Source: Squalus acanthias
Taxonomy: Eukaryota
Assembly (NCBI GenBank): GCA_030390025.1
Contig: CM059437.1
Coordinates: 25,234,001 to 25,298,000 of the forward strand
DNA length: 64,000 bases
Direction of reading: 5' to 3'
Every line of letters begins with the position of its first letter. Positions within the stretch are counted from its first letter, which is position 1. The translations under genes were made by a program, and so were the position numbers. Below are positions 5,700-61,365 of the stretch, piece after piece. The notes beneath the pieces are model-generated. The model ran no database searches. It was not told the DNA's origin and saw only the letters and a list, made by a program, of their open reading frames with translations.

Positions 5700-6042
5700 A
5701 ATGCAGGAAGAATGTTCCCGATGGTCGGAGAGTCCAGAACCAGGGGTCATAATCTAAGGATAAGGGGTAAGCCATTTAGGACAGAAATGAGGAAGAATTT
5801 CTTCACCCAGAGAGTGGTGAACCTGTGGAATTCTCTACCACAGAAGGTAGTTGAGGCCAAGTCATTAAATATATTCAAGAATGAGTTAGATAAATTTCTT
5901 AAAGCTAAAGGTATCAAGGGATATGGGGAGAAGGCAGGTACAGGGTACTGAGTTTGGATGATCAGCCATGATCTCATCGAATGGCGGAGCAGGCTCGAGG
6001 GGCTGAATGGCCTACTCCTGCTCCTATCTTCTATGTTTCTAT
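5700..6042 (+). mobile_element. CR1 LINE 3' fragment
   Basis: ORF2 C-terminus MFPMVGESRTRGHNLRIRGKPFRTEMRKNFFTQRVVNLWNSLP, 3'UTR gatcagccatgatc...ggcctactcctgctcctat and short-repeat tail. Confidence 0.9.
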
Positions 6043-7304: not shown

Positions 7305-9480
7305 CCAGTGTTCAGAGGCGGGTCCGCTGTCAAAAATCTAAAAGATTGACAACTGGTCGGGATCCCGCTCTGAACCCGCCTCCGTGTCAGTTTCCCAAGT
7401 GCAGGGTCTGCACTAAGCGGCAGGTCATCCAGTTGAGATAGTTAAGAGGGTCTTTAAAAGTAGTTGAACAGCATTTTACCACCTTCTAGCCATTTTTCCA
7501 ACTTTTCCACGAGGGTCCCATCGCTCGAGGTCATGTCAGGTAAGTGTGTCGGGTTCTCTGACTCTCCATTGTTGTGAATAGGTGACAGCTACAAAAGTGG
7601 TATAAAAGCTACCATTTCACAGGTGTTCACTTTCCAATGTCAGAAGCTTGAGCCTTCAAGATTTGGAAGACTTTTGAGCTGTATGCAGTTTGGAAGTGTT
7701 TGGAGTAAACTCTCTATCCACTGTCCCCTCCTTGGATGGATCACTTCTGCCATCTATTCCAGCAGCATCGGTACCCTTGAAAAAATCTCCCCTTGGTCCT
7801 CAGAATACCACCACGATCAGCCCCAACACCAGCAGCACCAGGCACACCAGCAGCACCAACAACAACACCAACCTTCTCCGCAATCACCTGATGCTGCACA
7901 GGACACAGGGCATCAGCACCCGACCACATTGCTGCCCGGGACGCCAGCGATGGCCTCACTATGGCCAGATTTACTTCACTTGGCACTGTACACCCTGGCT
8001 GCCACATGATACACCAGGCTGGCCCCACCCCACACCAGCACCATAAAGCATCCCATCAATGTCCAAGCCATTCCTTTCACACTCATCACCATTTGAGGGA
8101 GGGGAGGAGAAGTTATGTCTCCCCATTCACTGGAACTCACTAAGACACTTCCAAAGGTGCACGCAAATATGTCCAAGAACGGAAAGTGTTGAAAATAAAG
8201 ATTTCAATGCTTGACAACACATTAACACTTTACACAAGTGCCTATCCTTGTGTGTTAGTTTGAATAATTGGACTAGGATGAGGGTGAGTGTGAAGGGTGG
8301 CTAGTGAGATGGGGAAGCGATAACGTAGATAGAGAGGGTTGGGTGGCGGTGCAAGGTAAGTTGGTGTGAGTAAGGATGTACAGGAGTAGGGTAGGGAAGG
8401 CAGAGTGATGGGGATGTGATGAGTGGCACAGGAGGATGAGGTTGAGTGTGGCTTTGCAGTAACGTTTCGTGATCTTTGATCATTGAAAGGTTTGCGCCAC
8501 TGCAGCCAGGGACTCCTGACAACATCTCTGCTTGTGCCCTCCGGTGCACTGTAACCAGGCTGTGTTGGTGTCCTGGGGAGGTCTCTTCCGCCCATTGGAA
8601 GGGAAGAGAACCTCCTTGCGTGCTGTGACTCCCTCCATAAGCATATGGAGGGAGTCATGGGAGAGCCTGGGTGCAGCCGTGCACCTTTGTGCAGTGTTTG
8701 CAGCACCTCCGTGTTGTAGAACACTGACAGCACAACTGTCAAAATGAATGTGGACATGGCCCCTTTAAGGAAACATTGTGACTCCTGACAACGAACCGGA
8801 AGCTGCGCAGAAACATTCTGTGCATAACTGGCAGGTCCCAAATTTAAAAAATAACGTTCACCACAACAGACGGAGGATCTGAGAAGTGCTGAAGCACATC
8901 ACTAATAAAGTTTCATTAATGTTAGAGATTCCCAATCTACCGTCCTACGACTATTACAGGAATCTCCGAATGCTTTTTAGTCTCAGAAAAATAGTTTGCA
9001 AAATATTAACAAACCCGTAGGCAAAATAGACGGTGCTGGGGCCAAACTATCCCCCACCTGAAAACTGCTGACTCTGACCAACCACAATTTAGTGCACAAA
9101 CAAGTGGCTGATACCTGAATAAATTCTACAATTAATAAATTAAACTGCAACTGAACAATTTTTTTTTATCCGCTACTTTATTCCTCATTTTGGGAAGTCC
9201 GGCGACAACAAACAAAAAAACCCACTGGAACTGCGCATACGCAGCTACTTCCATTGGCAGCAGTCGCGTCCTTAAGGAAACCGGCTGGTGACGCGTCATC
9301 AGATGACGTCATCAGACCCGCTTCCTTTTAATTGGCCGGGTACCTCGCAGGGTGGGTTTAATAAGCTCAATCAGGGCAAAATCACTTGGAGGAGGCGGGA
9401 TGAAGACAGGAGCGGGGTTTGAAGCTGCCACCTACTCCGGCCACACCGGACTTGCCACAGTTGGCAGTGAATATTCAGAC
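7305..9480 (-). mobile_element. Longer Harbinger deletion derivative (family B) with Myb/SANT-like gene relic at 8479-8677
   Basis: Ends resemble reverse complements of the 14464 and 39125 element ends; minus-strand AAPRLSHDSLHMLMEGVTARKEVLFPSNGRKRPPQDTNTAW / (frameshift) TSRDVVRSPWLQWRKPFND; boundaries approximate. Confidence 0.6.
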
Positions 9481-11920: not shown

Positions 11921-12236
11921 GAGTACAGTAGTATAGTGGTTAAGGTACTGGACTAGTAACCCGGAGATTGTGACCAGATCGTGCCAAGGAAAATTGTGAA
12001 ATTGAATTTAATAATCTGGTAATTTGCGGGCTAGCATCAGAAAAAATTATCCTAAAAGTTGCAGATTGTTCCAAATACCCAACTGGTTCATTAATGTCCC
12101 TTTTTTAGGGAAGGGAATCTGCCACCCCAATCTGGTCCAGCTGTGTGACTCTTCATGCTCTCTGAAGTGGCTTAACAAGCAACTAGGGATGGGCAATAAA
12201 TGCGGCCTTGTGAATGTCACCCATGTCCTGAGTAAT
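11921..12236 (+). mobile_element. tRNA-headed SINE (same head and tail as the 53867 LINE)
   Basis: tagtatagtggttaaggtactggactagtaac head; ggttcattaatgtcc...agggaagg body; agggatgggcaataaatgcggcc tail. Confidence 0.8.
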
Positions 12237-14463: not shown

Positions 14464-15301
14464 GGCCGCGATTTTATTAATGGAGGTGAGTTGAGTGCGG
14501 GACAGCTGGTTTCCGGCTTCCAGTCCCGCACCCAGCTGCATCCGCTCCACAGACTTGACTTGATTTTCCCTTGATTGACCTTGTTAAGCCCGCCAATTAA
14601 CAGGAAGCGGGTCTGATGACGTCATCTGCCGGTTTCCCTGAAGGGACCACGCACAATTTTATTTTGACAGTTGATTTCTCCGTGTTTGACAGCATTGAGG
14701 TGCTGAAAACACTGACAGTCACGGCACAAAGGTGACCTCTTGCACCCAGGCTCTCCAATGATTCCCTCCATAGGCTGGAATAGATGGCAGCTGCAGGTGA
14801 GGTGACAGAAGCAATCTGTCACTGGTGAGAGAGGTTCTCTCAATGAGGTGGCACTGGCCATGGATTTAAAAACTTGTAAGCTAAAGAAATCTATAAATGT
14901 ATTAAAAATGCAGTACCCAACATTTTCTTTGCTCTGAAACTCACCATGTGCAACATTGGATCCTTCGCACCACTTCTGCAGCTGTCCTCATTCCACAAAC
15001 ATTACACCAGACTCACAACACGCCATACTTACCTGGCGTAGTGTCCGGACGTCGGGAAACCCGACCCAGAAGCGGGAAAATCCAAAAACAGCCTGAAAAC
15101 TACTGGCAAGTACCCGTTAATAGACAGGTAATTGCCTTTAATTCGCTTCCCGCCGCTAGGTGTCGGGTCCATTCGCAAATCGGGGACCCGACACTTGGGA
15201 AAGCTGTTTGGAGACGTGTTGACGGCGAGATCTGAACCCGCCGTCAATCAAAATGAATTTAACCTCTGACCCACCCTCTGAGCGCCGGCAAAATCGCGGC
15301 C
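14464..15301 (+). mobile_element. PIF/Harbinger-type MITE (family B)
   Basis: Perfect 12-bp TIR GGCCGCGATTTT/AAAATCGCGGCC, TTC/TTC TSD; degraded Myb start (gcacccaggctctccaatgattccctccat) near 14740. Confidence 0.85.
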
Positions 15302-16586
15302 TTCGACTTGGCTTGGATACGTCCCAGGGTATACACCTTGTTGCCTGGCTACCAAGTATGATTAAGTGGTTATAATGTCACCCACTGGGAAATCATTTCT
15401 GTCCTTGGTTTTCATTGGTATTCCTTCTGTATTTATGGGATTCTGTCCTTTTCCCTGCAGCCCTATTACAAGAAGGTTAATTTTAAAAGTATGCTTTTCA
15501 CTGATTTGGGGATTTCAATTAATTTTAGGCGTAGGCATTTTTCAAAAAGGCTGTAACATTAAGGGAAACTTTATATTTACCTACTCAGTGATGTAAACAT
15601 CATGGAAAATAGCTGTGAACATACGTTAGCTGGGGAATTTACCTTTCTGACATCTGAGGAAGTTGCTATTGATTCTGACCTATTAAAATTACTTTTACAT
15701 CTGATCTGATAACTGTGCTTGTATAAACTTTTATAAAAGTTTATAACTCCTGTTAACTGGTGTTTGGAAAAATCTTTGAATATTAGGTCATCTTTTACTG
15801 TGTTTTAAATAGACAATATTTCTTTTTGTTACTTTGTGCTGAAATTGCATTGTGTGCTGCCCATGGGTGCATTGTATGTTTGCATTTGAAGTAGGCATTA
15901 CTTAGTTATGTGAGCACCAAGTTCATCAAATGTTTTTATAAAATCTGCTCCCTGTCCCAAACAAGCCAGTGTTGGAAAATAACACTGATACCAGCTCAGA
16001 TTAAGTGAAATTAGGGTAGCTATTGCTGTATGAGAAACGAGTTTATATCTTGCATCTGTATTATTGTAATCTAAATGAATTTCCATTCTGATAATGGGAA
16101 TTGCCTATGTAAACTTGTCTTACTGGAATTCTACCTTCCTGCCAGTGATGGTGCAGAAGTGCTTCAGTTTTGTGTCTCCCACCTTCTCCGCCTGTACTGC
16201 AACAAATGCTACATCTTTGTGTCCTAAATTGCTATAGGTTTAGCTATTTATCCATAAATAATATAAAATCTAAGTATTTTGATGCTACGCCACAGGAGAT
16301 TAACTAATGAATCACAAAAAGTAGTGATGCCTGACGAAGATCAAAAGTTTTCAGTACTGATCCAGAATCATCAAGTTTGCAACTTGTGCAAACAGATATT
16401 TTTCAACTTGAAACAAGCACAATCTCTTGTATTTTTGTCACGTCACATTGGATATATCTTTTAATCAGTACCACTATTTCTGATGACTTTTGATGCTCAT
16501 AAATCTTTTAAAGAAAGCATACGTGTGGTTTAGTACCTGTCTGGGGAATTTTCTTGTTTGCTCAGTGATAGCAGTCTTGCTTCTAT

Positions 16587-17397
16587 GGGCTGGATTTTAT
16601 CAATGGGGAGCTTTTGGAGGCGGGACTCCCACTTGTCGGGTTTTAGTCCCGCCTCCATCGACTTGTGACCAACCCACGCTATTTTCCCTTGATTGACCTT
16701 GTTAAGCCCGCCCAGCGGTTACAGGTGACATCAGCGAGTGACGTTTCATCTGTCTTGAGCTTTTGACAGATGAATTGTCATCGTTTGAGAGCTCTGTGAA
16801 GCTGTCAAACACTGACAATCTGTCCTCTAAGTTCAGTCCTGTCACTCAGGCTGAGTTAGAGAGCTCTCCTAAGCAGAAGGCTGCAGCTTCTGACAGTTCA
16901 GCGGCCATTCTGCTTTCTGTGCCGGTGAGCTGAGGGACTCCCGAGAACTGAAGGGAGGAAGCCTGCAGGATGAAGTAAAGGTAAGTAAAACTTATTAAAA
17001 CAGTTTATACACACACCTCACACACTTACCTCTTCACACATGCACCCATCACTCACCTGCACACCAGACATCTCGGTCCTTCGACCCCCGCAGACCGACG
17101 GCCCGCCTCGCTGACCCTGGCGAGGTTCGGAGCCGTCGGGAAGCCCACACTTCAGGGCTCAAAATGGGGATTCTCCAAAAAACTGCCTGTTAACTGCCTG
17201 TTGACGGGCAGTTAATTGGCAGTAATCCCCTTCCTGCCTCGAGGAGACGGGACCCGGTGCGGGTCGGGTACCCGCCTCCTGGGAAGATGGCACGGAGGCG
17301 GGTTGGGCTCGGGATGGGTACCCGCCCCCAGATTCTGCCATTTTCCCGGCAGTCCCGCCTCCAAACCCGTCTTCCCAGGGCTGGCAAGATCGCCCCC
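16587..17397 (+). mobile_element. PIF/Harbinger-type MITE (family B2)
   Basis: gggctggatttt left end, GGAGGCGGG/CCCGCCTCC subterminal repeats, closely similar to 37959-38763. Confidence 0.8.
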
Positions 17398-18980
17398 TTT
17401 GTCACTGAAATATCAAACTTAAAAGGGAAAAATCTAGCATAAAACATTCAGGTCAAGATAGAGTAGGTGGTGACATTTTTGCTGTAGCTCATTTTTACCA
17501 AAACAAAAATCCCAGCGCTGAGACACATTTTCCTGCTGGTGTACAATAATGACAACCGTCAATCCACGAGCAGAATTCTGTATGTGGACAAGTAAAAACA
17601 GAACGGAAAACAATTCTGACCAAGAGTTTTATGTACTTTTATTCCTCTTTCCCTGCTTAGTGCCAACTAATGGTGACAACAATTTTTAAAATGGAGGTAT
17701 GTGAGGAGAGCGTTAAATCCAAAGTATAGCTCCACACAATTTAAAAAAAAAGTAACCATTAATTTTGTCCTATTAAAAGCACCTAGGTTAGAATGGAAGT
17801 TTTAAAACTGGGGTCTGCAGACCTTCAAGGGTCTGAGAGGATCCCAATGTTCCTGAAGAGTCATGCGATTTCTGTATTTTTATGTTGTGCCAGTAAGTCA
17901 AAGGAATGTTATTTCTGCTATTTAGCAACAGAAATGCTAAGTTATGTTTTACTTTCCGTAGCTGACACTTCTTTTGGAAGGGGTGGCTGGGAATGTGCAA
18001 TTTTGCAGGGATTCCCACATAGAAGAGTTTGAAAACTACTCTTATCTTTTCTTTTACTTGTGGCCGCATGGAGTTGGCTGAAGTATTTGTTAGAAGGAAA
18101 GGGAATGTGGACTTGTTCTGAAATAGACTAATTTGTCGCCATCTCCTGCAAGCTTCTTTAACAAATTGTGTACTGCATTTTAAAAATAAATTGCAATTTA
18201 AATAATTACAATATTTACAACAAAATTGAGTCACTTTTTTTACTTTTCAGTATTGCAGAATCATTCAATAATCTTTTCTGACTATTGCTCTTGGCCATTT
18301 ACAAACTGGTAAGTTCAGTAAAAAGCAACATTTCATTGAATCCCACCAGTTGTATCAACTGGCTTAACCTACAGGGTTACTTGAATATTGCTATTTGCAA
18401 TTAAGGCATTGCAAGGCATTGCAGTTTGTTTTTCATGTATGTTAGTTGTCATAAGTGGCAGTAATTCAGTTGAGAACAAATGAAACTTTTTGGTGTAAAG
18501 AAAGTAGAAACCACCAGCCAAGTAAACATTTCCCTAAAATGACAGTTGTGTGGAAATATGTACAGCGTACTGCCCACAATTCTGTTTGTAGAGTTGCATC
18601 ATATCCTGAACGTTTGCAATATTTCTGCAATGCCATGTCCCTGACTTTATAATTTAAAATCCTACCTACTACTTTTGGAAATTCTGGTGCTTTGGATTAA
18701 TAATACTTTGGGAGGAGATGACTGCACCACTGGGTTCTAAAGGAAATTTAAAAATGGCCAAGAGTTTATAATGCTATCTTTAAATGTGTATTTTTTAAAT
18801 GCTGCCTTCTAAAGAGGTGTTTATATATAGATGTTCTCTTGCAGGAGCTGCAAACAGTGTGTATTCTGAATGTTCTGAAAGGGGCTGATCTTTTGTGACT
18901 GGCTGAACTTGTGAGAAAACATATGAGTAGATGACAGATGGCAACTTATCAGATAACCTTTTCTTTTCAGCGTTCTGTAA

Positions 18981-43828
<24,848 letters not shown>

Positions 43829-44461
43829 ATTCTGTGTGCCATTAACCAATGCAGGATCTATTGTTGTTGGTTATATCTTCAGTATGATTAACCACTAGTT
43901 ACAATGGTTTACACAATAATTTGTTTATATCTATTGTCTCTTGAAAATTAGTACTTTAATAATGTTACTACTCTGTTGCATATAATGCTTTAACTGCATT
44001 GTATCATGTTAATTTCCAGCTGCTTATTTCAAATTTAGCCCAACAAAGAAAGCTTTGTTTTACACCAGTCCAGTGCTTCAACATGGATCCGATCAGTCCT
44101 TGGCAATTGCAGATGGTTCAAAAGAAACAACTCTTCTGCAGTATATTGCAAGACTCTGGTGCACTATGGCAATGTGCTACCCTTTTACACTGTCCTTGTT
44201 CATGTGGATTTAGTAGATGTGTATTATCAACAGCTTCAAGTACACAATCCCAACTCATAGTGGGATGAAAAGTAAATTCTTCAGGAGTGTATTTTTTGCT
44301 GGTTTGAATTCAGAGATGATGCACTTATAAAAGAGATGTGGACTACATACCTGTGTCTTGGTCCCAGTGCACCTTGTTTGGAAAATGGCACCCAAGTGTG
44401 CAGAAACAGAGTACTGTGCATGACCAGTGTTTGTTTGAACTGCTTTTTAAATGTTTTTATT

Positions 44462-44845
44462 AATTCTCGGGATGTGGGTGTCCCTGGGAAGGCCGGCATT
44501 TATTGCCATTCCTAGTTGCCCTGAGAAGATGGTGGTGAGCCTCTTCTTGAACCTCTGTAGTGGTTTGCTACAACTGAATGGCTTGTTAGTCCATTTCAGA
44601 GGATTGTAAAGTCAACCACATTGGTGTGGAACTGGACTTGCATATAGGCCAGACCGGGTATGGGCAGCAAGTCTCCTTCCCTAAAGGACATTAGTGAATC
44701 GGTTGGGTTTTTACGACAATCCAAAGCTTTATGGTCACTTACTGATACCAGCTTATTATTTCCAGATTTTGAAAAACTGAATTCAAATTCTCAAACTGCC
44801 ATAATGGGAATTGAACTTGCGTACTCTGGATTATTAGTCTAGGCC
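44462..44845 (-). mobile_element. tRNA-headed SINE, antisense within the presumed STAT3 3'UTR
   Basis: ggatgtgggtgtc...gcatttattgcc...ccttccctaaaggacattagtgaa...ctggattattagt is the reverse complement of the 53867 head/tail. Confidence 0.85.
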
Positions 44846-46509
44846 TCTCGATTACTTGCACTGAATAGAGCTCTGCAGGGATGACGGTTCTGAGACTGGA
44901 CTACAGAGAGCAGGTGTCAATCGCTGTGTTAATCAGCTCTCCTTTCTCTGGCTATTCACCAGTTCCCACAGGGAAGCATGTTGTTATGGTGCACGGGGCA
45001 AGCTGACTGCTCAATTTATTTCCAGAGTCTGCTTAAGTTTCTTGATGAGTAAATGGATATTGTAGTGCGATGCTAAATTTAGCAGGACAGTGGGATGTTA
45101 ATGAGGCTGGTTGTTAGGTAAATAATGAAAAGTTGTTCTCTATGTAGATTAATTGTTTTTATATTAAAAGCATTTTTTTGTTATAACTCTTAAACGAGGT
45201 TCTAAAAGACAAAGCTGCATCCATGTGGTGTATTGCCCCTGAGGAAAGAGCCAATCCAACATTACTAATAAATTTAGAAATGTTTGAAAATGTAAATTGC
45301 ATTAAGCTGCAGGGAATTGTAATATGTCTGTGATTTGTACTTTAAAAAGGTATTGTTGGCATTGTAGAAAGTGAACAATAATGGAAACTGCCTGGGCCAG
45401 AGGTAGAAAATTACAATTCAGTGGAGTGCATTTGGCTAAGGATTTAAGGTCTGCAATCATTCTGTATTTCAATAATGCAGTGTTTATTATTGACAAAAGT
45501 ATATTCAGAGCAATGCTTGGTCTAACAATGGGAATGCATTTTTAAGAATTCTTGATGTTGCTCTAGTGCTTGAGGTTGTTTGAAGTAAATGGAATGTGCA
45601 AGTAAAATGTCAAGTATGACAATGCTAGCAAAGGTTTGTATATATTGGACCATCAAAACCTTTTTTGAAGGTCTGGTGTTTGGGCTGGGGAGGGGAGAGG
45701 ATTAGAAATCCCATTTGAACCCAGGTCTTTTGGCCTAAGTGTTAGAAAAATGGTCGATTCAAGATGAGTTTTTTACTTTTGCCATGTGAAGCTTCTGTGT
45801 GAAGACTGCATTATAGAGTTAACAACTCCAATGGGCTTGCATTGTGCTACCATGTGGATAATGATGAGTTAAACTGTATAATCATGGTTTTCGACATGTA
45901 AGTCAGAAATCCACGATTAAGCCACAACGAAGCAGTTTTTAGTGTACTCTTGTAAATTTTTTTGTACATTATGGGAGAGGGAGGAAAAATTCTACAAGTT
46001 TGAAACAATTTTTTGATGAGGAATTTGAATTTATCACTGTAGGAAAAAGTAAATCTCGAGCAGAGAGCTACAAAGATGTCCAAATTGCATTCTGACTGGT
46101 TTGAGTAACTGAGTAACCTTTTATTACCTCCCATCTCCCTGCTTCAGTATAATGCAGTTCAGTTTCTTCGTGCCGTAAAGCCGACTGTGTACCTCCACTG
46201 TCTTACTCAAAAATGATTGCTTTTCGGAAGTAGGGAAGCATATTTTTAATCCCCTCCATTGTATATGAATGCATGATGTAATGAATTCTAAAACTGGTTG
46301 AATATCACTGTTAAGCTGTAAAACATTCTCTTACAGTGCATCCGATTCTGTTTTAAGCATTTTTAATTAATTTCATTTGTGAAATGTATGGTTTGACTGT
46401 ATTCAAGATGTGTATATGAAAAGTGTGTATAAATGATATAGGCAGCATTCATTTATGCTGTAAATTTTATTGCTGTAATACTGAAAACTATCTCCTTATC
46501 CTTTTACTG

Positions 46510-50315: not shown

Positions 50316-51055
50316 GAGCTAGATTTTGTGAATGGAGGCGGGACAGCTGCTTGTCGTGTCAATGTCCCGCCTCCATCCTCGCCTGACCAACCAGAGGAAT
50401 TTTCCCTGATGGAGCCTGTTAAGCCTGCCCTGCGGGCTCAGCAGGCCAATTAGGGAGGAAGTGACTGACAGATCACGTTAACGTCAGACGTGCTATCTGT
50501 CAAGACTTCTTCAAAGAAGAAATGTCAGCGTTTGACAGCTCTGTGAAGCTGTCAAACACTGACATGCTGTTTAGTTTGATGAGTCCTGTGTTCAGGACTC
50601 ATCAAACCTTTCAAATTTGTAAATTTCACATGGCTGTTGGAACAGAGGTTCCAACAGCCAGTCTGTGAAATTGACGAGCAGGATGTCAGCTCTTAAGATC
50701 CACCGCGGCTAAAGGCTGTAGAAAGAAAACAAGGTAAGTGAACACTTTTTTAAACTTAGCACTCACCCTGCATACCTACCACTCCACACTTGCACCCATC
50801 ACTCACCTCTACACCCTACTTCCAGGTGCCCCTGACCGCCACAGACCTCCTCCACGTCTCCTCCAACCCAGCGGGGTTCTCCGAGGTCGGAAAGCTTTCA
50901 CCTGTGAAGGTAAAATGGCACTAATCCTTTTTTCTGCCTGTTAACTACCTGGCAAAAGGGCACGGAGGCGGGATGGGGGCAGCTTTGCCATCCGCCCCCA
51001 CTTTCTCCGAGTTTACCGGCTGTCCCGCCTCCTCGGGGCTTGGAAAATCCAGCCC
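50316..51055 (+). mobile_element. PIF/Harbinger-type MITE nested in a LINE 3' fragment (~50190-51190)
   Basis: gagctagatttt ... aaaatccagccc, flanks taa/caa; LINE-like sequence resumes after the element. Confidence 0.75.
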
Positions 51056-51854
51056 CAAGTGTCTTTATAGATAGCACTTGGTCCGTGTGATCTCCTGGAC
51101 TGGTTTCAATCGCCTGAGGGGATCGGAGAGGAATTTTCCAAGTATTTTTTCCCTTATTGGCCCTGGTTTTTTTTTCTCTTTTTAGATTACGTTGCTACAG
51201 GAGGGGAGGGAGGGAGGGAGTGGAAGGCGTAGTTACAATCCTCCGGCCAGCGTGAGTTGTACATTTGTGTGGAGCATTGTGTAAAATGTGTGTTTTAAAA
51301 GTTGATCATTTAACTGCAGATTTGCATAATGTTCCACAAACACATACAAGTTGGAACAAATCTTTCTGGCTCCCTGCGAGTGTCAGGGTAGAATGTTTGC
51401 CGTGCAGTCGCAGCCACTTTTGGCCACACATCACTTAGTTCATCTCAAAACATTTGCAAGTAAAGTGAACGGATAGGTTAGTAACTTTTCCTACAATATA
51501 ATTGATTTCCTTAAGTATGGAAAACGTATTGTTCCCAAAAGTCCTTGGAGAACCTAAATTAGTGCTTCTTCAAATCTTAATGCTGTGATAAATTAATTAT
51601 ACATTGAATTGTAAAATGCAGAAATAAGTGGTCTCTCAGAACACTGATTTACAATAATGTTTATAAAAAATGTAAGTAAGACCCTGTCTCCCCAAGCATG
51701 ATATATTAGCTGTGAAGATTAATCTCTTTTTTGTTACTATAAAGAGGCTGAAGTGTAACTAGTTTTCAATGGAGTACAATTTTGAAATGCTTCCATGAAT
51801 AAGTACTTTAATATTAGTCATGCACAGCCTTTGCAGATTGGGTTTACATATAAT

Positions 51855-53270: not shown

Positions 53271-53866
53271 TATGTCATCGTGCCTGCAGTTTGCTGCAGT
53301 TCATTTCTGCTTTACTCAATGTTGAAGGTTCTGCTACAGTCTTTGTTCAAGAATCAAAGTCAATAGCTTCCCTGGTGTCTTAGTTGGTAACTGCAGAGGA
53401 AAGTCTGTGGGTTCGATCGTAGGTCTGTGCTGAGTTCACTGATCTCATGTCAGGGCAACACCTGAGGTGCCACAAGTGGCTTCTATATCTCTGGGTTAGG
53501 GAGTGAAGAAGTACCGAGAATTTCTGCTCCTGCTTGTTCTATGGAAAGTGTGGATGTTAGTTAAGGGCAGAATCAGTTCAAATAACCTGCCAACATCTGC
53601 TGGCTGGGTGCCAATTTGAAGAATGGTAAATTGAATGCGATACTGTAGGGCTACAGGTGCCCACGGAACTGTACCTCAGCGTAAGTCAGTGCCTTCAACA
53701 AATGAGAGGAAAAAAATTGAGGGGGATTGAACACTATTGTGGCTGTTCACTTTCTGATGCTCAGATCCCATCATACATTACTATTAAAATAATTTCTATA
53801 TAAACTAAGTTTTGCGATCCAGATTCAATACACATTTTTTTGCCTAATTTTCTTCATTCCCTTTCA

Positions 53867-56635
53867 GGGAACGGTAGCATAGTGGTTATGTTACTGGATT
53901 AGTAATCCAGAGGCCTGGACTAATGATCCGGAGACGTGAGTTCAAATCCCACCACGGCAGCTGGGGAATTTAAATTCAGTTAATTAAATAAATCTGGAAT
54001 AATTACCAGTATCAGTAATGGTGACCATGAAACTATCGGATTGTCACAAAAACCCATCTGGTTCACTAATGTCCTTTAGGGAAGGAAATCTGCCGTCCGT
54101 ACCTGGTCTGGCCTATATGTGATTCCAGACCCGCAGCAATGTGGTTGACTCTTAACTGCCCTCTGAAATGGCCTAGCAAGCCACTCAGTTGTAAAAAAAC
54201 TGCTACGACAAACAATAAGAATAAAACTGGACGGACCACCCGGCATCGACCTCCACACCAGCTACAGACACGACAATGGTACACCCAGCCCAGTCGACCC
54301 TGCAATGTCCTCCTCACCAACATCTGGGGACTTGTGCCAAAATTGGGAGAGCTATCCCACAGACTAGTCAAGCAACAGCCTGACAAACTCATATCCACAG
54401 AATCATACCTTTCAACCAATGTCCCAAACTCCTCCATCACCATCCCTGGGTATGTCCTGTACCACCAGCAGGACAGATCCACCGGGGTGGCGGCACAGTG
54501 GTATACAGTCAGGAAGGCGTGGCCCTTGGAGTCCTCAACATTGACTCCGGACCGCATGAACCTCCTGCTGATTACCACCTACTGCCCTCCCTCAGCTAAT
54601 GAATCAATACTCCTCCATGTTAAACACCACTTGGAAGAAGCACTGAGAGTAGCAAGGGCACAGAATGTACTCTGGGTGGGGGACTTCAATGTCAATCACC
54701 AAGAGTGGCTTGGTAGCACCACTACTGACCGAGCTGGCCGAGTCCTGAAGGACTTAGCTGCCAGTCTGGGCCTGCGACAGGTGGTGAGAGAACCAACACG
54801 AGGGAAAAACCTACTTGACCTCGTCCTCACCAATCTACCCGTCGCAGCTGCATCTGTCCATGACAGCATTGGTAGTAGTGACCACCGCACAGTCATTGTG
54901 GAGATGAAGTCCCGTCTTCACAATGCGGACACCCTCCATCGTGTTGTGTGCGCTACCACTGTGCTAAATGGGATAGATTCAGAACAGATCTAGCAGCTCA
55001 AAACTGGGCATCCATGAGGCGCAGAATTGTATTCCACCACCGGATCCAGCAAAGGTTATGGGCCCCGACAACATCCCGGCTTTCATGCTGAAGACTTGTG
55101 CTCCAGAACTAGCCACGCATCTAGCCAAGCTGTTCCAGTACAGCTGCAACACTGGCATCGAGCCGACAATGTGGCAAACTGCCCAGGTAGGTCCTGTCCA
55201 CAAAAAGCAGGACAAATCCAATCCAGCCAATTACCGCCCCAGCCAATTACCGCCCCATCAATCTACTCTCAATCTACTCTCAATCATCAGCAAAGTGATG
55301 GAAGGTGTCGTCGACAGTGCTATCAAGCGGCACTTACTCACCAATAACCTGCTCACTGATGCCCAGTTTGGGTTCCACCAAGACCACTCGGCTCCAGACC
55401 TAATTGCATCTTGGTCCAAACATGGACAAAAGAGCTGAATTCCAGAGGTGAGGTGAGAGTGACTGCTCTTGACATCAAGGCAGCATTTAACCAAATGTAG
55501 CATCAAGGAGCCCTAGTAAAACTGAAGTCAATGGGAATTGGGGGGGGGGAAACTCTCCACTGGCTGGAGTCATACCTAGCACAATGGAAGATGGTTGTGG
55601 TGGTTGGAGGTCAATCATCACAGCCCCAGGACATTGCTGCAGGAGTTCCTCAGGGCAGTGTCCTAGGCCCAACCATCTTCAGCTGCTTCATCAATGACCT
55701 TCCCTCCATCATAAGGTCAGAAGTGGGGATGTTCGCTGATGACTGCACAGTGTTCAGTGTCATTTGCAACTCCTCAGATAATGAAGCAGTCCATGCCCGC
55801 ATGCAACAAGACCTCGACGACGTTCAGGCTTCGGCTGATAAGTGGCAGGTAACATGCGCGCCACAGAAGTGCGAAGGCAATGACTATCTCCAACAAGCGA
55901 GCGTCTAACCACCGCCCCTTGACATTCAACGGCATTACCATTGCCAAATCTCCCACCATCAATATTCTGGGGGGTCATCATTCACCAGAAACTTAACTGG
56001 ACCAACCACATACATACTGTGGCAACAAGAGCAGATCAGAGGCTAGGTATTCTGCAGCAAGTGTCTCACCTCCTGACTCCCCAAAGCCTTTCCACCATCT
56101 GCAAGGCACAAGTCAGGAGTGTGATGGAATGCTCTCCACTTGCCTGGATGAGTGCAGCCCCAACAACACTCAAGAAGCTCGACACCATCCAAGACAAAGC
56201 AGCCTGCTTGATTGACACCCCATCCACCACCTTAAACATTCACTCCCTCCACCACCAGCCTACCGTGGTTGCAGTGTGTACTATCTACAAGATGCACTGC
56301 AGCAACTCGCCAAGGCTTCTTCGGCAGCACCTTCCAAACCCGCAACCTCTACCACCTAGAAGGACAAGGGCAGCAGGCGCATGGGAACAACACCACCTCC
56401 AAGTTCCCCTCCAAGTCACACACCATCCTGACTTGGAAGTATATCGCCGTTCCTTCATCGTCGCTGGGTCAAAACCCTGGAACTCCCTCCCTAACAGCAC
56501 TGTGGGAGTACCTTCACCACACGGACTGCAGTGGTTCAAGAAGGTGGCTCACCATCACCTTCTCAAGGGCCAATAGGGATGGGCAATAAATGCTGGCCTT
56601 GCCAGCGACGCCCACATCCCATGAATGAATAAACA
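53867..56635 (+). mobile_element. CR1-group (Zenon-like) LINE, degraded EN+RT, with tRNA-like 5' head
   Basis: A box tagcatagtggt (~53875), B box gagttcaaatccc (53938-53950); APE motifs TNIWGL, GDFN, PTRGKNLLDLVLTN, SDH; RT motifs GPDNIP, NYRP, GVPQGSVLGP, FADD, KAQVRSVME; (atga)n tail; several frameshifts and an internal deletion. Confidence 0.88.
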
Positions 56636-56694
56636 AATAAACCTCTCCTGAAGGTGCTAACTCCTTGCTGGGATATAGTTCTACAGCCACCTTC

Positions 56695-58440
56695 TTGGCC
56701 CCTTGAGCCTGCCCCGCCATTCAATAAGATCATGGCTGATCTTGGGCTCAAAGCCACTTCCCCGCCCGCTCCCCATAACCCTTCACTCCCTTATCTTGCA
56801 AAAATCTGTCTATCTCCACCTTAAACGTACTTGATGACCCAGCCTCCACCGCTCTCTGGGGCAGAGAATTCCACAGATTTACAACCCTCTGAGAGAAGAA
56901 ATTCCTCCTCATCTCAGTTCTAAAAGGGCGACCCTTTATTCTAAAACTGTGCCCCGCGTTCTAGATTCCCCACGAGGGGAAACATCCTCTCTGCATCTAC
57001 CTTGTCGAGCCAACTCAGTATCTTATATGTTTCAATAAGATCACCTCTCATTCTTCTAAATTCCAATGAGTATAGGCCCAGCCTGCTCAAACTTTCCTCA
57101 TAAGTCAACCCCCTCATCTCTGGAATTAACCTAGTGAATTGTCTCTGAACTGCCTCTAATGCAAGTATATCCTTCCTTAAATAAGGAGACCAAAACTGTA
57201 CGCAGTACTCAAGGTGTGGTCTTACCAATACCCTGTACAGTTGTAGCAGGACTTCCCTGCTTTTATAATCCAACCCCTTTGAAATAAAGGCCAACATTAC
57301 ATTTGCCTTTTTGATTACTTGCTGTACCTGCATGCTAACTTTTTGTGTTTCATGCACAAGGACCCCCAGGTCCCTCTGAACTGTAGCATTTTGTAATCTC
57401 TCTCCATTTAAATAATAATTTGCTTTTTTATTTTTCCTGCCAAAGTGTATAACCTCACACTTTCCCACATTATACTCCATCTGCCAAATGTTTGCCCACT
57501 CACTTAGCCTGTCTATATCCCTTTGCAGGTTCTTTGAGTCCTCTGCACAACTTGCTTTCCCACCCATCTTTGTATCATCCGCAAACTTGGCTACATTACA
57601 CTCGGTCCCTTCATCCAAGTCATTAATGTAGATTGTAAATAGCTGAGGCCCCAGCACCGATCCCTGTTGCACCCCACTAGTTACCGTTTGCCAACCGGAA
57701 AATGACCCATTTATCCTGACTCTCTGCTTTCTGTTAGTTAGCCAATTCTCTATCCATGCTAATATATTACCCCCAATTCCGTGAGCTCTTATCTTATGCA
57801 GTAACCTTTTATGTGGCACCTTATCGAATGCCTTCTGGAAATCCAAATACACCACATCCACTGGTTTACCTTTGTCCACCCTGCTCGTTACCTCCTCAAA
57901 GAACTCCAGCAAGTTTGTTAAACATGATTTCCCTTTCATAAAACCATGCTGACTCTGCGTGACTGCATTATGATTTTCCAAATGCCCTGCTACTGCTTCC
58001 TTAATGAAGGACTCCAGCATTTTCCCAACCACAGATGTTAGGCTAACTGGTCTATAGTTTCCTGCTTTCTGTCTCCCTCCTTTCTTAAATAGGGGTGTTA
58101 CATTTGCGGTTTTCCAATCCGCTGGGACCTCTCCAGAGTCCAGGGAATTTTGGTATATTGCAACCAATGCATCCACTATCTCTGCAGCCACTTCTTTTAA
58201 GACCCTGGGATGCAGGCCATCTGGTCCAGGGGACTTGTCGTCTTTTAGTCCCATTATTTTACCAAGGACTATTTCCTTAGTGATAGTAATTGTCTTTAGT
58301 TTCCCCCCTCCCTGTGGCCCCTTGATTATCCATTATTGGGATGTTGTTAGTGTCTTCTACTGTGAAGACAGATACAAAATATTTGTTCAGAGTCTCTGCC
58401 ATTTCCCCGTTCCCTATTATTAATTCCCCAGTCTCATCCT
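56695..58440 (-). mobile_element. 5'-truncated CR1 LINE with 437-aa RT ORF (56941-58254)
   Basis: KSPGPDG, NYRPVSLTS, YLDFQKAFDKV, QGSVLGP, FADDTK, VRPHLEYCVQFWSP; C-terminal frameshift; CR1 3'UTR near 56700. Confidence 0.95.
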
Positions 58441-59726
58441 CGTCCCTAAATGCTTTACAGGCAATTAAGTACTTTCGAAGTGGAGTCTCTGTTGTAATGT
58501 AGGGATTGCGGCAGCCAATTTGCGCACAGCAAGGTCCCACAAACAGCAATGTGATAATGACCAGATAATCTGTATTTCAGTGATGTTGTTTGAGGGATAA
58601 ATATTGGCCCAGGACACGGGGATAACTCCCCTGCTCTTTTTCGAAATAGTGCTGTGGGATCACATCTATGGCAATCCTTTCCACAGATGCTAGTAGTTAA
58701 GTATCCTGGCTAAAGTAGGCGATATAATAGGAATCCCTAATCTCCAGATTATTACAAGAGCTGGCAATGTTTTAAAAGTAATCCACATATTTGATCAATT
58801 TTTAATTGCCTGACAGTGCAGCAGACCTTGATGTTGGAGACCTCTTTGGCAATAAGGTGCAACTACAGCACTGAGCACTGCCGAAGAATTATTCCCATTT
58901 GGCATATTTTTTCATACTGGATATAAACTTGCTAATGGGTGTTTGCATATGAGAAGCTCAACTCTGATCAACAGTGCTTTCTGTTGAATAAAATTAAGCT
59001 GCCATTACATTTTGACTCTTCCCTTGCCTGTGATTTGCAGTTAAACACACATGTTGTGAATTTGCTTTCCTTAACTTTAGGTTGCCTTACGCAATTCACC
59101 ATTTCCCAGTGAAATGGTAATCAGGTTTTCTGATCCTGGAATGCTGCTTGTGAGTTTCATCCTAAGGAGCGTGCTGAAGTAGCACAGGGTAACTGACCAT
59201 GTTGTTTTCTGGTTTAAATTTTGTTCCTCCCCTGATACTGCAGAGTCAAAGTCAGCGAATTTACCATGTGGGAAATTCTGCATCCTGACATTGTTCTTAC
59301 TGTGTTGCTGCTTTAGAGAGGTGTCTGTCCCTTGATCCATCCATTTAATTAACGTGAAGCTTTCTATTTCTTTGAACCAAATGTAAAATCCTATTACTAT
59401 TCAGTTAAATAAAATGAAGTGATCTGATCTGTGTTTTCACACTGTAATAAATATTCTTTTTATGCTCCTACATGTACAGGTAAGTATGATTCGTGATGGA
59501 GCAATGAAACCAAATCACCAGCTACTCTGTTAAAAGTTCCGGAGAGGGGCACTGTGCGTGTGTATGTATAATAAATATCCTTCAGTTGGTAATCCTGTGA
59601 CACACTCAACCCATTGAAATCAATGGATAATGCTGCAACAATAACAACTATTCCTTTTACTTGCTCCTGATGTGGCATTGTAACATCTGTCAGCTGGTTA
59701 CAACAAGCATAGCTACAAGACATAAT

Positions 59727-60734: not shown

Positions 60735-61365
60735 TGATTGGCCTTTATTACAAGAGGATTGGAGTATAAGAGTAAAGATGTCTTACTGCAATTATATAGG
60801 GCCCTGGTGAGACCACACCTGGAGTATTGTGTACAGTTTTGGTCTCCTTACCTAAGAAAGGATATACTTGCCAGAGAGGGAGTGCAACGAAAGTTCACCA
60901 GACTGGTTCCTGGGATGGGGGGATTGTCCTATGAGGAGAGATTGAGTAGACTAGGTCGATATTCTCTAGAGTTTAGAAGAATGAGAGGTGATCTCATTGA
61001 AACATACAAAATTCTTACAGGGCTTGACAGGGTAGATGCAGGGAGGATGTTTCCCCTGGCTGGGGAGTCTAGAACCAGAGGTCACAGTCTCAGAATAAGG
61101 GGTCGGCCATTTAGGACTGAGATGAGGAGAAATTTCTTCACTCAGAGGGTGGTGAATCTTTGGAATTCTCTACCCCAGAGGGTTGTGGAGGCTCAGTCGT
61201 TGAGTATATTCAAGACAGAGATCGATAGATTTTTGTATATTAAGGGAATCAAGGGATATGGGAATAGTGCAGGAAAGTGGAGTTGATGTAGAAGATCAGC
61301 CATGATCTTATTGAATGGCCAAATGGCCTACTCCTGCTCCTATTTCTTATGTTCTTATGTTCTTA
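60735..61365 (+). mobile_element. CR1 LINE 3' fragment (young)
   Basis: Uninterrupted 182-aa ORF2 C-terminus (60738-61286) and (ttcttatg)n tail. Confidence 0.93.

Follow-up and report, generated by a model that had tools for sequence, protein, structure and literature searches.

Short interspersed elements (SINEs) are defined as non-coding, dependent retroelements that RNA polymerase III (Pol III) transcribes, and long interspersed elements (LINEs) as coding ones transcribed by RNA polymerase II (Pol II). According to the part of one account available to us, SINEs cannot encode a protein (PMC5786205). The locus described here raises the question of whether a single element can be both. It lies in a 64,000-nucleotide stretch of the genome of the shark Squalus acanthias (GenBank assembly GCA_030390025.1, contig CM059437.1, positions 25,234,001 to 25,298,000; henceforth the window), in which an element on the plus strand, extending from 53867 to about 56640, begins with a tRNA-like head and runs into a coding region for endonuclease and reverse transcriptase (RT). 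The reading that we consider probable is that the locus holds a decayed member of an abundant and long-lived, ORF1-less family of shark LINEs with a tRNA-derived head, whose 3.3-kb RNA is likely produced by Pol III, a polymerase from which messages for proteins would not be expected, and likely translated without an AUG.

Architecture of the element

At its full length of 3.3 kb, the family consists of a tRNA-like head, a body of ~240 bp, a single endonuclease-RT frame of ~970 codons and a hairpin tail. The head (53867..53953) forms the fixed 5' end of the element, as established from 51 5'-complete copies. The initial annotation had described it as tRNA-like with A and B boxes, and this holds: the boxes lie at 53875-53885 and 53938-53949, and an Rfam tRNA match covers 53874-53953 with 25.5 bits and E 0.006, short of the gathering score of 29; ARAGORN calls no tRNA gene in the window. 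The anticodon and T arms of the head are similar to those of tRNA-Gln genes of the same genome. Separately, we observed a long tandem array (G000:C21:3342186-3502284) in which a tRNA-Gln motif recurs about every 1.19 kb, with more than 90 matches listed. A head with both boxes at the 5' end is a trait of tRNA-derived SINEs (SINE2); the other traits of that class, small size and absence of coding capacity, are found in the ~430-bp derivatives of the element and not in the 3.3-kb element with its endonuclease-RT frame.

The body (53954..54191) is common to the local SINEs and constitutes the 5' untranslated region (UTR) of the LINE. Its possible identity with a Deu domain was considered and rejected because one 18-nt Deu motif (taken from the supplement of PMC7245038, the part of that source used) has no match in the element at up to 3 mismatches; in this respect the body differs from that of the DeuSINEs SacSINE1 and AmnSINE1. 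Deu-motif matches at 35032, 49930 and about 58477-58661 represent a second, unrelated SINE family in the window. No Rfam ribozyme was detected in 53700-54400 at E<=5, a scan that a divergent ribozyme could escape. An in-frame stop at 54192-54194 is followed by an AUG-less leader of about 36 codons rich in Arg and Lys (54192..54303, stop included). Then come the APE endonuclease domain (54304..54915), the remnant of a linker (54916..55169), the RT domain (55170..55990) and the C-terminal coding region (55991..56576), which extends to the family stop codon at 56574, a column common to the copies. The tail (56525..56640), shared with the SINEs, includes the last codons, a stem-loop at 56576-56621 with a predicted fold of -23.9 kcal/mol, AATAAA at 56585-56590 and a short A-rich end.

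An APE endonuclease followed by RT, without ORF1, in a decayed copy had also been proposed from the start, and each part of this description stands. Pfam matches occur in the order Exo_endo_phos_2 (E 1.9e-14), RVT_1 (E 9e-15), and the ~330 nt before the open reading frame (ORF) carry stops in all frames, leaving no ORF1. Compared with 15 other copies, the window copy has a 512-bp deletion at 55038, a 35-bp and a 20-bp deletion, a 27-bp duplication and several 1-bp indels. The 35-bp deletion and a 1-bp deletion break the endonuclease, the 20-bp and 512-bp deletions fall in the linker near 55020-55038, and the RT domain contains frameshifts, a stop and the 27-bp duplication.

A family of tRNA-headed LINEs

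The question that decides between a family and an accident is what lies upstream of the coding region in other copies. The genome of 3.7 Gb yielded 4,147 candidates in the first search, 40 of which were scored, and all copy sets discussed below are the best-scoring 40-72 of thousands of candidates. Among 67 endonuclease-anchored loci, 62 reach the body or head, the remaining five are truncated within the leader, and none has an alternative 5' region. These loci comprise three sets anchored in the coding region, in which 27/29, 7/9 and 28/29 reach the body or head (two loci of the last set look like a single duplicated segment); 12 loci of the first set come within 5 bases of the 5' end, and the flanks of truncated copies have no alternative 5' region in common. 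Conversely, when loci were selected with the head of the window copy, a query biased to the young type (see below), 27 of 29 continued through the endonuclease and the other two were short deletion derivatives. The 51 5'-complete copies, LINEs and SINEs together, share the start base, and their flanks are unrelated. By eye, the full-length copies L033 and L049 cleanly interrupt CR1-like sequence that continues on both sides, and the empty site of L034 is present as a joint in all four public runs. The host sequence flanking the window copy was not found among the loci compared. Dispersed copies, 5' truncation and a fixed 3' end with a simple tail are traits of LINEs, all of which the element displays.

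The element travels as a single unit of head, body, frame and tail, and the tRNA-headed coding LINE is a real family, not a one-off fusion. The initial annotation had foreseen a single-ORF endonuclease-RT retroposon whose full-length copies start with the tRNA head, which is what the 67 loci show; target-site duplications spanning head to tail, which it had proposed to look for, are short or absent in the 8 copies examined, with a single 6-bp candidate. In two loci, L033 (G000:C25:47816000-47823500) and L325, two copies of the element meet in inverted orientation.

The copies fall into two subfamilies. Young copies differ by 4.3% from their column modes; the old subfamily is 15.5% from its own modes and about 72% identical to the young one. 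The search for the old type displayed 23 of 30 loci, 8 of which, by eye, have a recognisable tRNA head and endonuclease. Outside Squalus, the protein has named relatives in four sharks: Heptranchias (81-88% identity), Pristiophorus (69-83%), Heterodontus (73%) and Rhincodon (68-76%), all fragments and hence uninformative about the head. The 5' kilobase of the element was found in sequencing runs of 10 organisms from 9 studies, and the junction between body and endonuclease is spanned by individual contigs from runs X17 and X18. A further protein search had no named non-shark vertebrate among the best 120 matches listed, most of which are nameless; a similar SINE may exist in turtles. The family is long-lived in sharks, its two subfamilies, about 28% apart, having a common layout. 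Pieces of the element's protein also occur in the annotated shark gene models P0002, P0008, P0010 and P0011 (aldo-keto reductase, sushi-domain protein, GPR139-like and LRRC32-like, respectively), reflecting either exonisation or annotation error.

A coding frame under purifying selection

A single frame without a shared stop extends from 54195 to 56574, about 970 codons, or 982 in a second alignment with another placement of the leader gaps. Variants present in at least 4 copies comprise 26 synonymous and 27 nonsynonymous changes, compared with 248 and 663, respectively, among private variants (Fisher p 0.0014), and the modes of the old and young subfamilies differ by 9.6, 7.1 and 20.7% at codon positions 1, 2 and 3 (964 codons). 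The frame evolved under purifying selection in both subfamilies, which implies that the source elements needed their own protein and bears out the autonomy that had been attributed to the parent.

SINEs as probable shortened copies of the LINE

Three SINE copies in the window, at 44456-44856 (minus strand), 36753-37152 (plus strand) and 11925-12210 (plus strand), consist of head and body joined to the tail, the last with a body of the old-subfamily type and a different body-tail junction. As had been noted at the outset, they share head, body and tail with the element: identity over its first ~340 bases is 77-80%, after which the SINEs jump to the tail from 56525. A SINE query returned the same structure, head and body joined to tail, in 25 of 25 loci. 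The SINEs retain the first codons behind the 54192 stop and the last codons of the ORF, with several different junctions, and their body types pair with the LINE subfamilies, the SINE at 11925 having the old body and L260, L269 and L271 the young body and tail. The local SINEs are the element minus its coding middle. The simplest reading of these sequences is that SINEs arose repeatedly from the LINE by internal deletion. One abundant SINE body type was never found joined to the endonuclease (0/9), indicating that SINEs also evolved on their own, and the original head of the LINE may have been acquired through a template switch from an older SINE.

This organisation resembles that of the bipartite SINEs, such as those of the Bov-tA/Bov-A/Bov-B and SINE2-1_ACar/Vingi-2_ACar sets and RTE-derived SINEs, in which the SINE combines a tRNA head with the 5' and 3' parts of the partner LINE; in those cases, as far as the accessible text of the sources goes, the head sits on the non-coding derivative and the LINE is headless, whereas here the coding LINE itself is headed (PMC5786205, PMC4494074). 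In cartilaginous fish, SacSINE1 and the CmiSINEs with L2-2_CM, and HE1 with HER1, likewise have a tRNA head and a LINE-shared tail, but these pairs, in the portions of the reports available, share only the tail with the LINE (PMC5499810, PMC3747384).

The missing start codon

The initial annotation had placed the start of the ORF at an ATG at 54139..54141. This assignment does not extend to the family: of 77 scorable copies, 9 have the ATG in frame, and in the window copy only a 1-base insertion, an additional A near 54199, brings it into the frame of the endonuclease. A start at this ATG, or a -1 frameshift from it, was rejected on these counts and because some young copies, like the old subfamily, have an early stop in the upstream frame; no conserved slippery site for a -1 frameshift was found. 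In 43 of 56 copies, the 54192 stop and the endonuclease motif are separated by a multiple of 3, and this stop recurs in the old subfamily, followed by a similar basic leader. Young and old modes alike have no Met before codon 287, behind the endonuclease, whereas the three clade relatives with DNA have a Met within 2-20 codons. Because the frame opens at the 54192 stop, the first modal Met lies so far downstream and the relatives start early, translation likely begins on a non-AUG codon near the leader. There are precedents for such unorthodox translation in AUG-independent re-initiation on L1 ORF2 and in cap-independent translation of R2.

A candidate upstream ORF of 17 codons in the body (54069..54122), weak and recognised post hoc, has 5 synonymous changes among the 7 codons that differ between old and young subfamilies (0.3 expected); 49 of 51 young copies retain its ATG, compared with only 4 of 10 old ones. 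Folding of the body, in search of a conserved IRES-like structure, gave a single-sequence z of 0.27, and the consensus folds of the subfamilies disagree. The motif DxExNPGP, which 2A-bearing single-ORF LINEs carry near the N-terminus according to the consulted portion of PMC3894237, was absent by eye from the leader and the upstream frames.

Which polymerase transcribes the element

Judged from sequence, transcription of the element by Pol III appears quite probable, and it is somewhat more plausible than not that the same Pol III RNA is also translated. A strict A box is present in 19 of 26 heads and a strict B box in 20 of 26, and the fixed start, corresponding to the 5' end of the tRNA, is preceded by G in only 5 of the 51 5'-complete copies. 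On the sense strand, neither subfamily has any column run of four T (3.8 expected), runs of three T number 7-8 compared with 19.5 expected, and runs of four A, C or G do occur. In 25 natural copies, the observed to expected ratio of T3 is 0.40; among comparators, the median of 73 related ORFs is 1.05 (minimum 0.66) and 35 shark CR1 fragments give 1.16. The interrupted runs TNTTT and TTTNT, described as weak terminators in the available text of PMC8466645, occur at 0.13/kb versus 1.34 expected. Phe makes up 1.8% of the element's protein and 2.3-5.6% of those of 12 relatives.

A number of observations weigh against this interpretation. The skew in Phe codons is non-significant (p 0.12). When codons of one copy were shuffled with protein and codon usage held fixed, 1.7-2.2 T4 runs were expected and 1 observed (P 0.3-0.4), and first- and second-order Markov controls (dinucleotide and trinucleotide) absorb the T-run signal, rendering it non-significant. 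The relative L174, of like composition, has only one T4; most T-run comparators are AT-rich; and the old and young subfamilies are not independent for these counts. None of the listed public runs containing the element is recorded as RNA. The Met-free endonuclease frame requires a still hypothetical translation route, and no conserved covarying structure emerged in the body. None of 72 scored copies is fully open, the thinly covered old subfamily has 4 modal stops, and the choice of copies by best score makes the sets non-random.

The most serious alternative, which we nonetheless regard as unlikely, is a tRNA-headed LINE transcribed by Pol II from a promoter in the body or by host read-through, with the T-poverty caused by base composition or another constraint and the head a passenger from an old template switch onto a bipartite SINE. 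It agrees with the view, given in the accessible part of PMC5786205, that Pol II is responsible for the transcription of LINEs consisting only of 5' and 3' parts and of the parents of such LINEs; moreover, a cap would ease translation, and codon-level controls lend the absence of T4 weak support. However, the 5' ends fall at the tRNA start and show no additional G derived from a cap, the A and B boxes persist across subfamilies, and the depletion is T-specific, extends to runs that are interrupted and is not shared by relatives or shark CR1. Even a capped RNA would still have no AUG for the endonuclease.

Division of labour between two RNAs is a distinctly less probable alternative. Here, Pol III would make the template, and the protein would be encoded by sporadic transcripts of some copies, read through by Pol II or spliced, in which a start codon is provided; or else an unseen sister LINE, itself equipped with a normal 5' UTR, would mobilise the element in trans. 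Such a scheme accounts for the signs of Pol III as well as for the lack of an AUG with no new translation mechanism, and a rare sister family could escape a survey that scored the best 40-72 candidates. Nevertheless, the headed element's own frame is under purifying selection in both subfamilies, leader indels preserve the frame up to the 54192 stop, and an alternative 5' end appears in 0 of 67 loci. Finally, a one-off chimera, in which a LINE copy inserted into a SINE or switched template onto one, would suit the in-frame ATG peculiar to the window copy but has a negligible probability and is refuted by the identical junction in dozens of loci, in two subfamilies and in contigs of two other organisms.

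Proposed mode of propagation

If the element is indeed a Pol III-transcribed LINE, its cycle might run as follows. TFIIIC would bind the A and B boxes and Pol III would start at the 5' end of the tRNA, reading through the element by virtue of a sense strand purged of T-runs and stopping at a terminal or flanking T-run; an A-tail would then be added, possibly via AATAAA as in T+ SINEs. Ribosomes may begin translation just behind the 54192 stop at a codon other than AUG, either by re-initiation or independently of a cap. The protein would bind the 3' stem-loop, and target-primed reverse transcription would insert a copy with short or no target duplications. Internal deletions in the LINE would have given rise to SINEs repeatedly, and these would rely on its protein.

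The 3' end lends itself to comparison with B2, Dip and Ves, all T+ SINEs, which similarly have AATAAA, a T-run and an A-tail and whose Pol III transcripts can be polyadenylated; unlike the element, these are described in the part of the source available as non-coding, mammalian and L1-driven (PMC8466645). Tails of the element have one to five T followed by a short A-run, with four or more T in only 6 of 29, and its AATAAA is located about 40 nt upstream, within the predicted stem-loop, two further departures from the T+ SINEs.

In its fullest form, this proposal describes an autonomous Pol III retrotransposon with a 3.3-kb, uncapped and terminator-free RNA, translated from a non-AUG start through a cap-independent signal in the ~240-nt body; it would have been active throughout the evolution of sharks and would have given rise directly to a SINE family by plain deletion. 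For this combination as a whole we see about even chances.

Relatives of the element

In a quick tree of 50 rows with no named references, the RT belongs to a clade of 24 rows supported by a Shimodaira-Hasegawa-like approximate likelihood ratio test (SH-aLRT) value of 99. The clade includes proteins of 940-1000 aa, among them amphioxus and moth (Loxostege) sequences, and is separate from the ordinary CR1 of the window; it may correspond to the group named Zenon. An Rfam scan of 14 related loci detected no tRNA head. As only three of these loci are in the element's clade, one of them without upstream DNA, a 'shark-specific' head is a tentative notion; the search for related loci found no conserved seed in a 16-row alignment and used an 8-row alignment, with viral contigs left out. 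The clade relatives with DNA differ from the element in having no tRNA head, an early Met and, in L091 and L171, normal T-run counts. Among the loci L171-L247, many animal-symbiont genomes in GTDB carry eukaryotic LINE contigs, likely host contamination.

Lepidopterans have a single-ORF CR1 element, Zenon, with an internally deleted derivative, Persaeus (PMC6740152). In the accessible text of that report, Zenon resembles the shark family in having a single endonuclease and RT ORF and a short derivative that comprises both ends, including both ends of the ORF, but Persaeus is described as having neither tRNA homology nor a Pol III promoter (PMC6740152).

Other repeats in the window

Ordinary CR1-type LINE copies are located at 56748-58576 (minus strand), 60738-61318 (plus strand) and 5701-6042 (plus strand). 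The CR1 at 56944-58332 retains an open RT frame of 463 codons; CR1 served as the T-run control. A GC-rich dispersed repeat of about 0.8 kb is present in at least 5 copies (14497-15308, 16582-17404, 37954-38770, 39120-39944 and 50333-51062) and, inverted, near 8640-9339, and a tandem array at 41588-41824 contains about six 30-bp units.

Implications

We found no description of a coding LINE with a tRNA head in the literature searched, and two sequence motifs from the window had no match in full texts; Repbase or Dfam entries, Repbase Reports, subscription papers or supplements may hold one. The family unites the LINE and SINE halves in one unit that has been kept through about 28% sequence divergence, and it suggests a short route to the origin of SINEs, by deletion alone, without capture of a head at the SINE stage. 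The role of SINE bodies becomes testable because here the body is the 5' UTR of a LINE, directly before an AUG-less frame, and so does the question of whether a long message that encodes a protein can be a natural product of Pol III. An autonomous Pol III retrotransposon, if true, would do away with the Pol II/Pol III divide that separates LINEs from SINEs.
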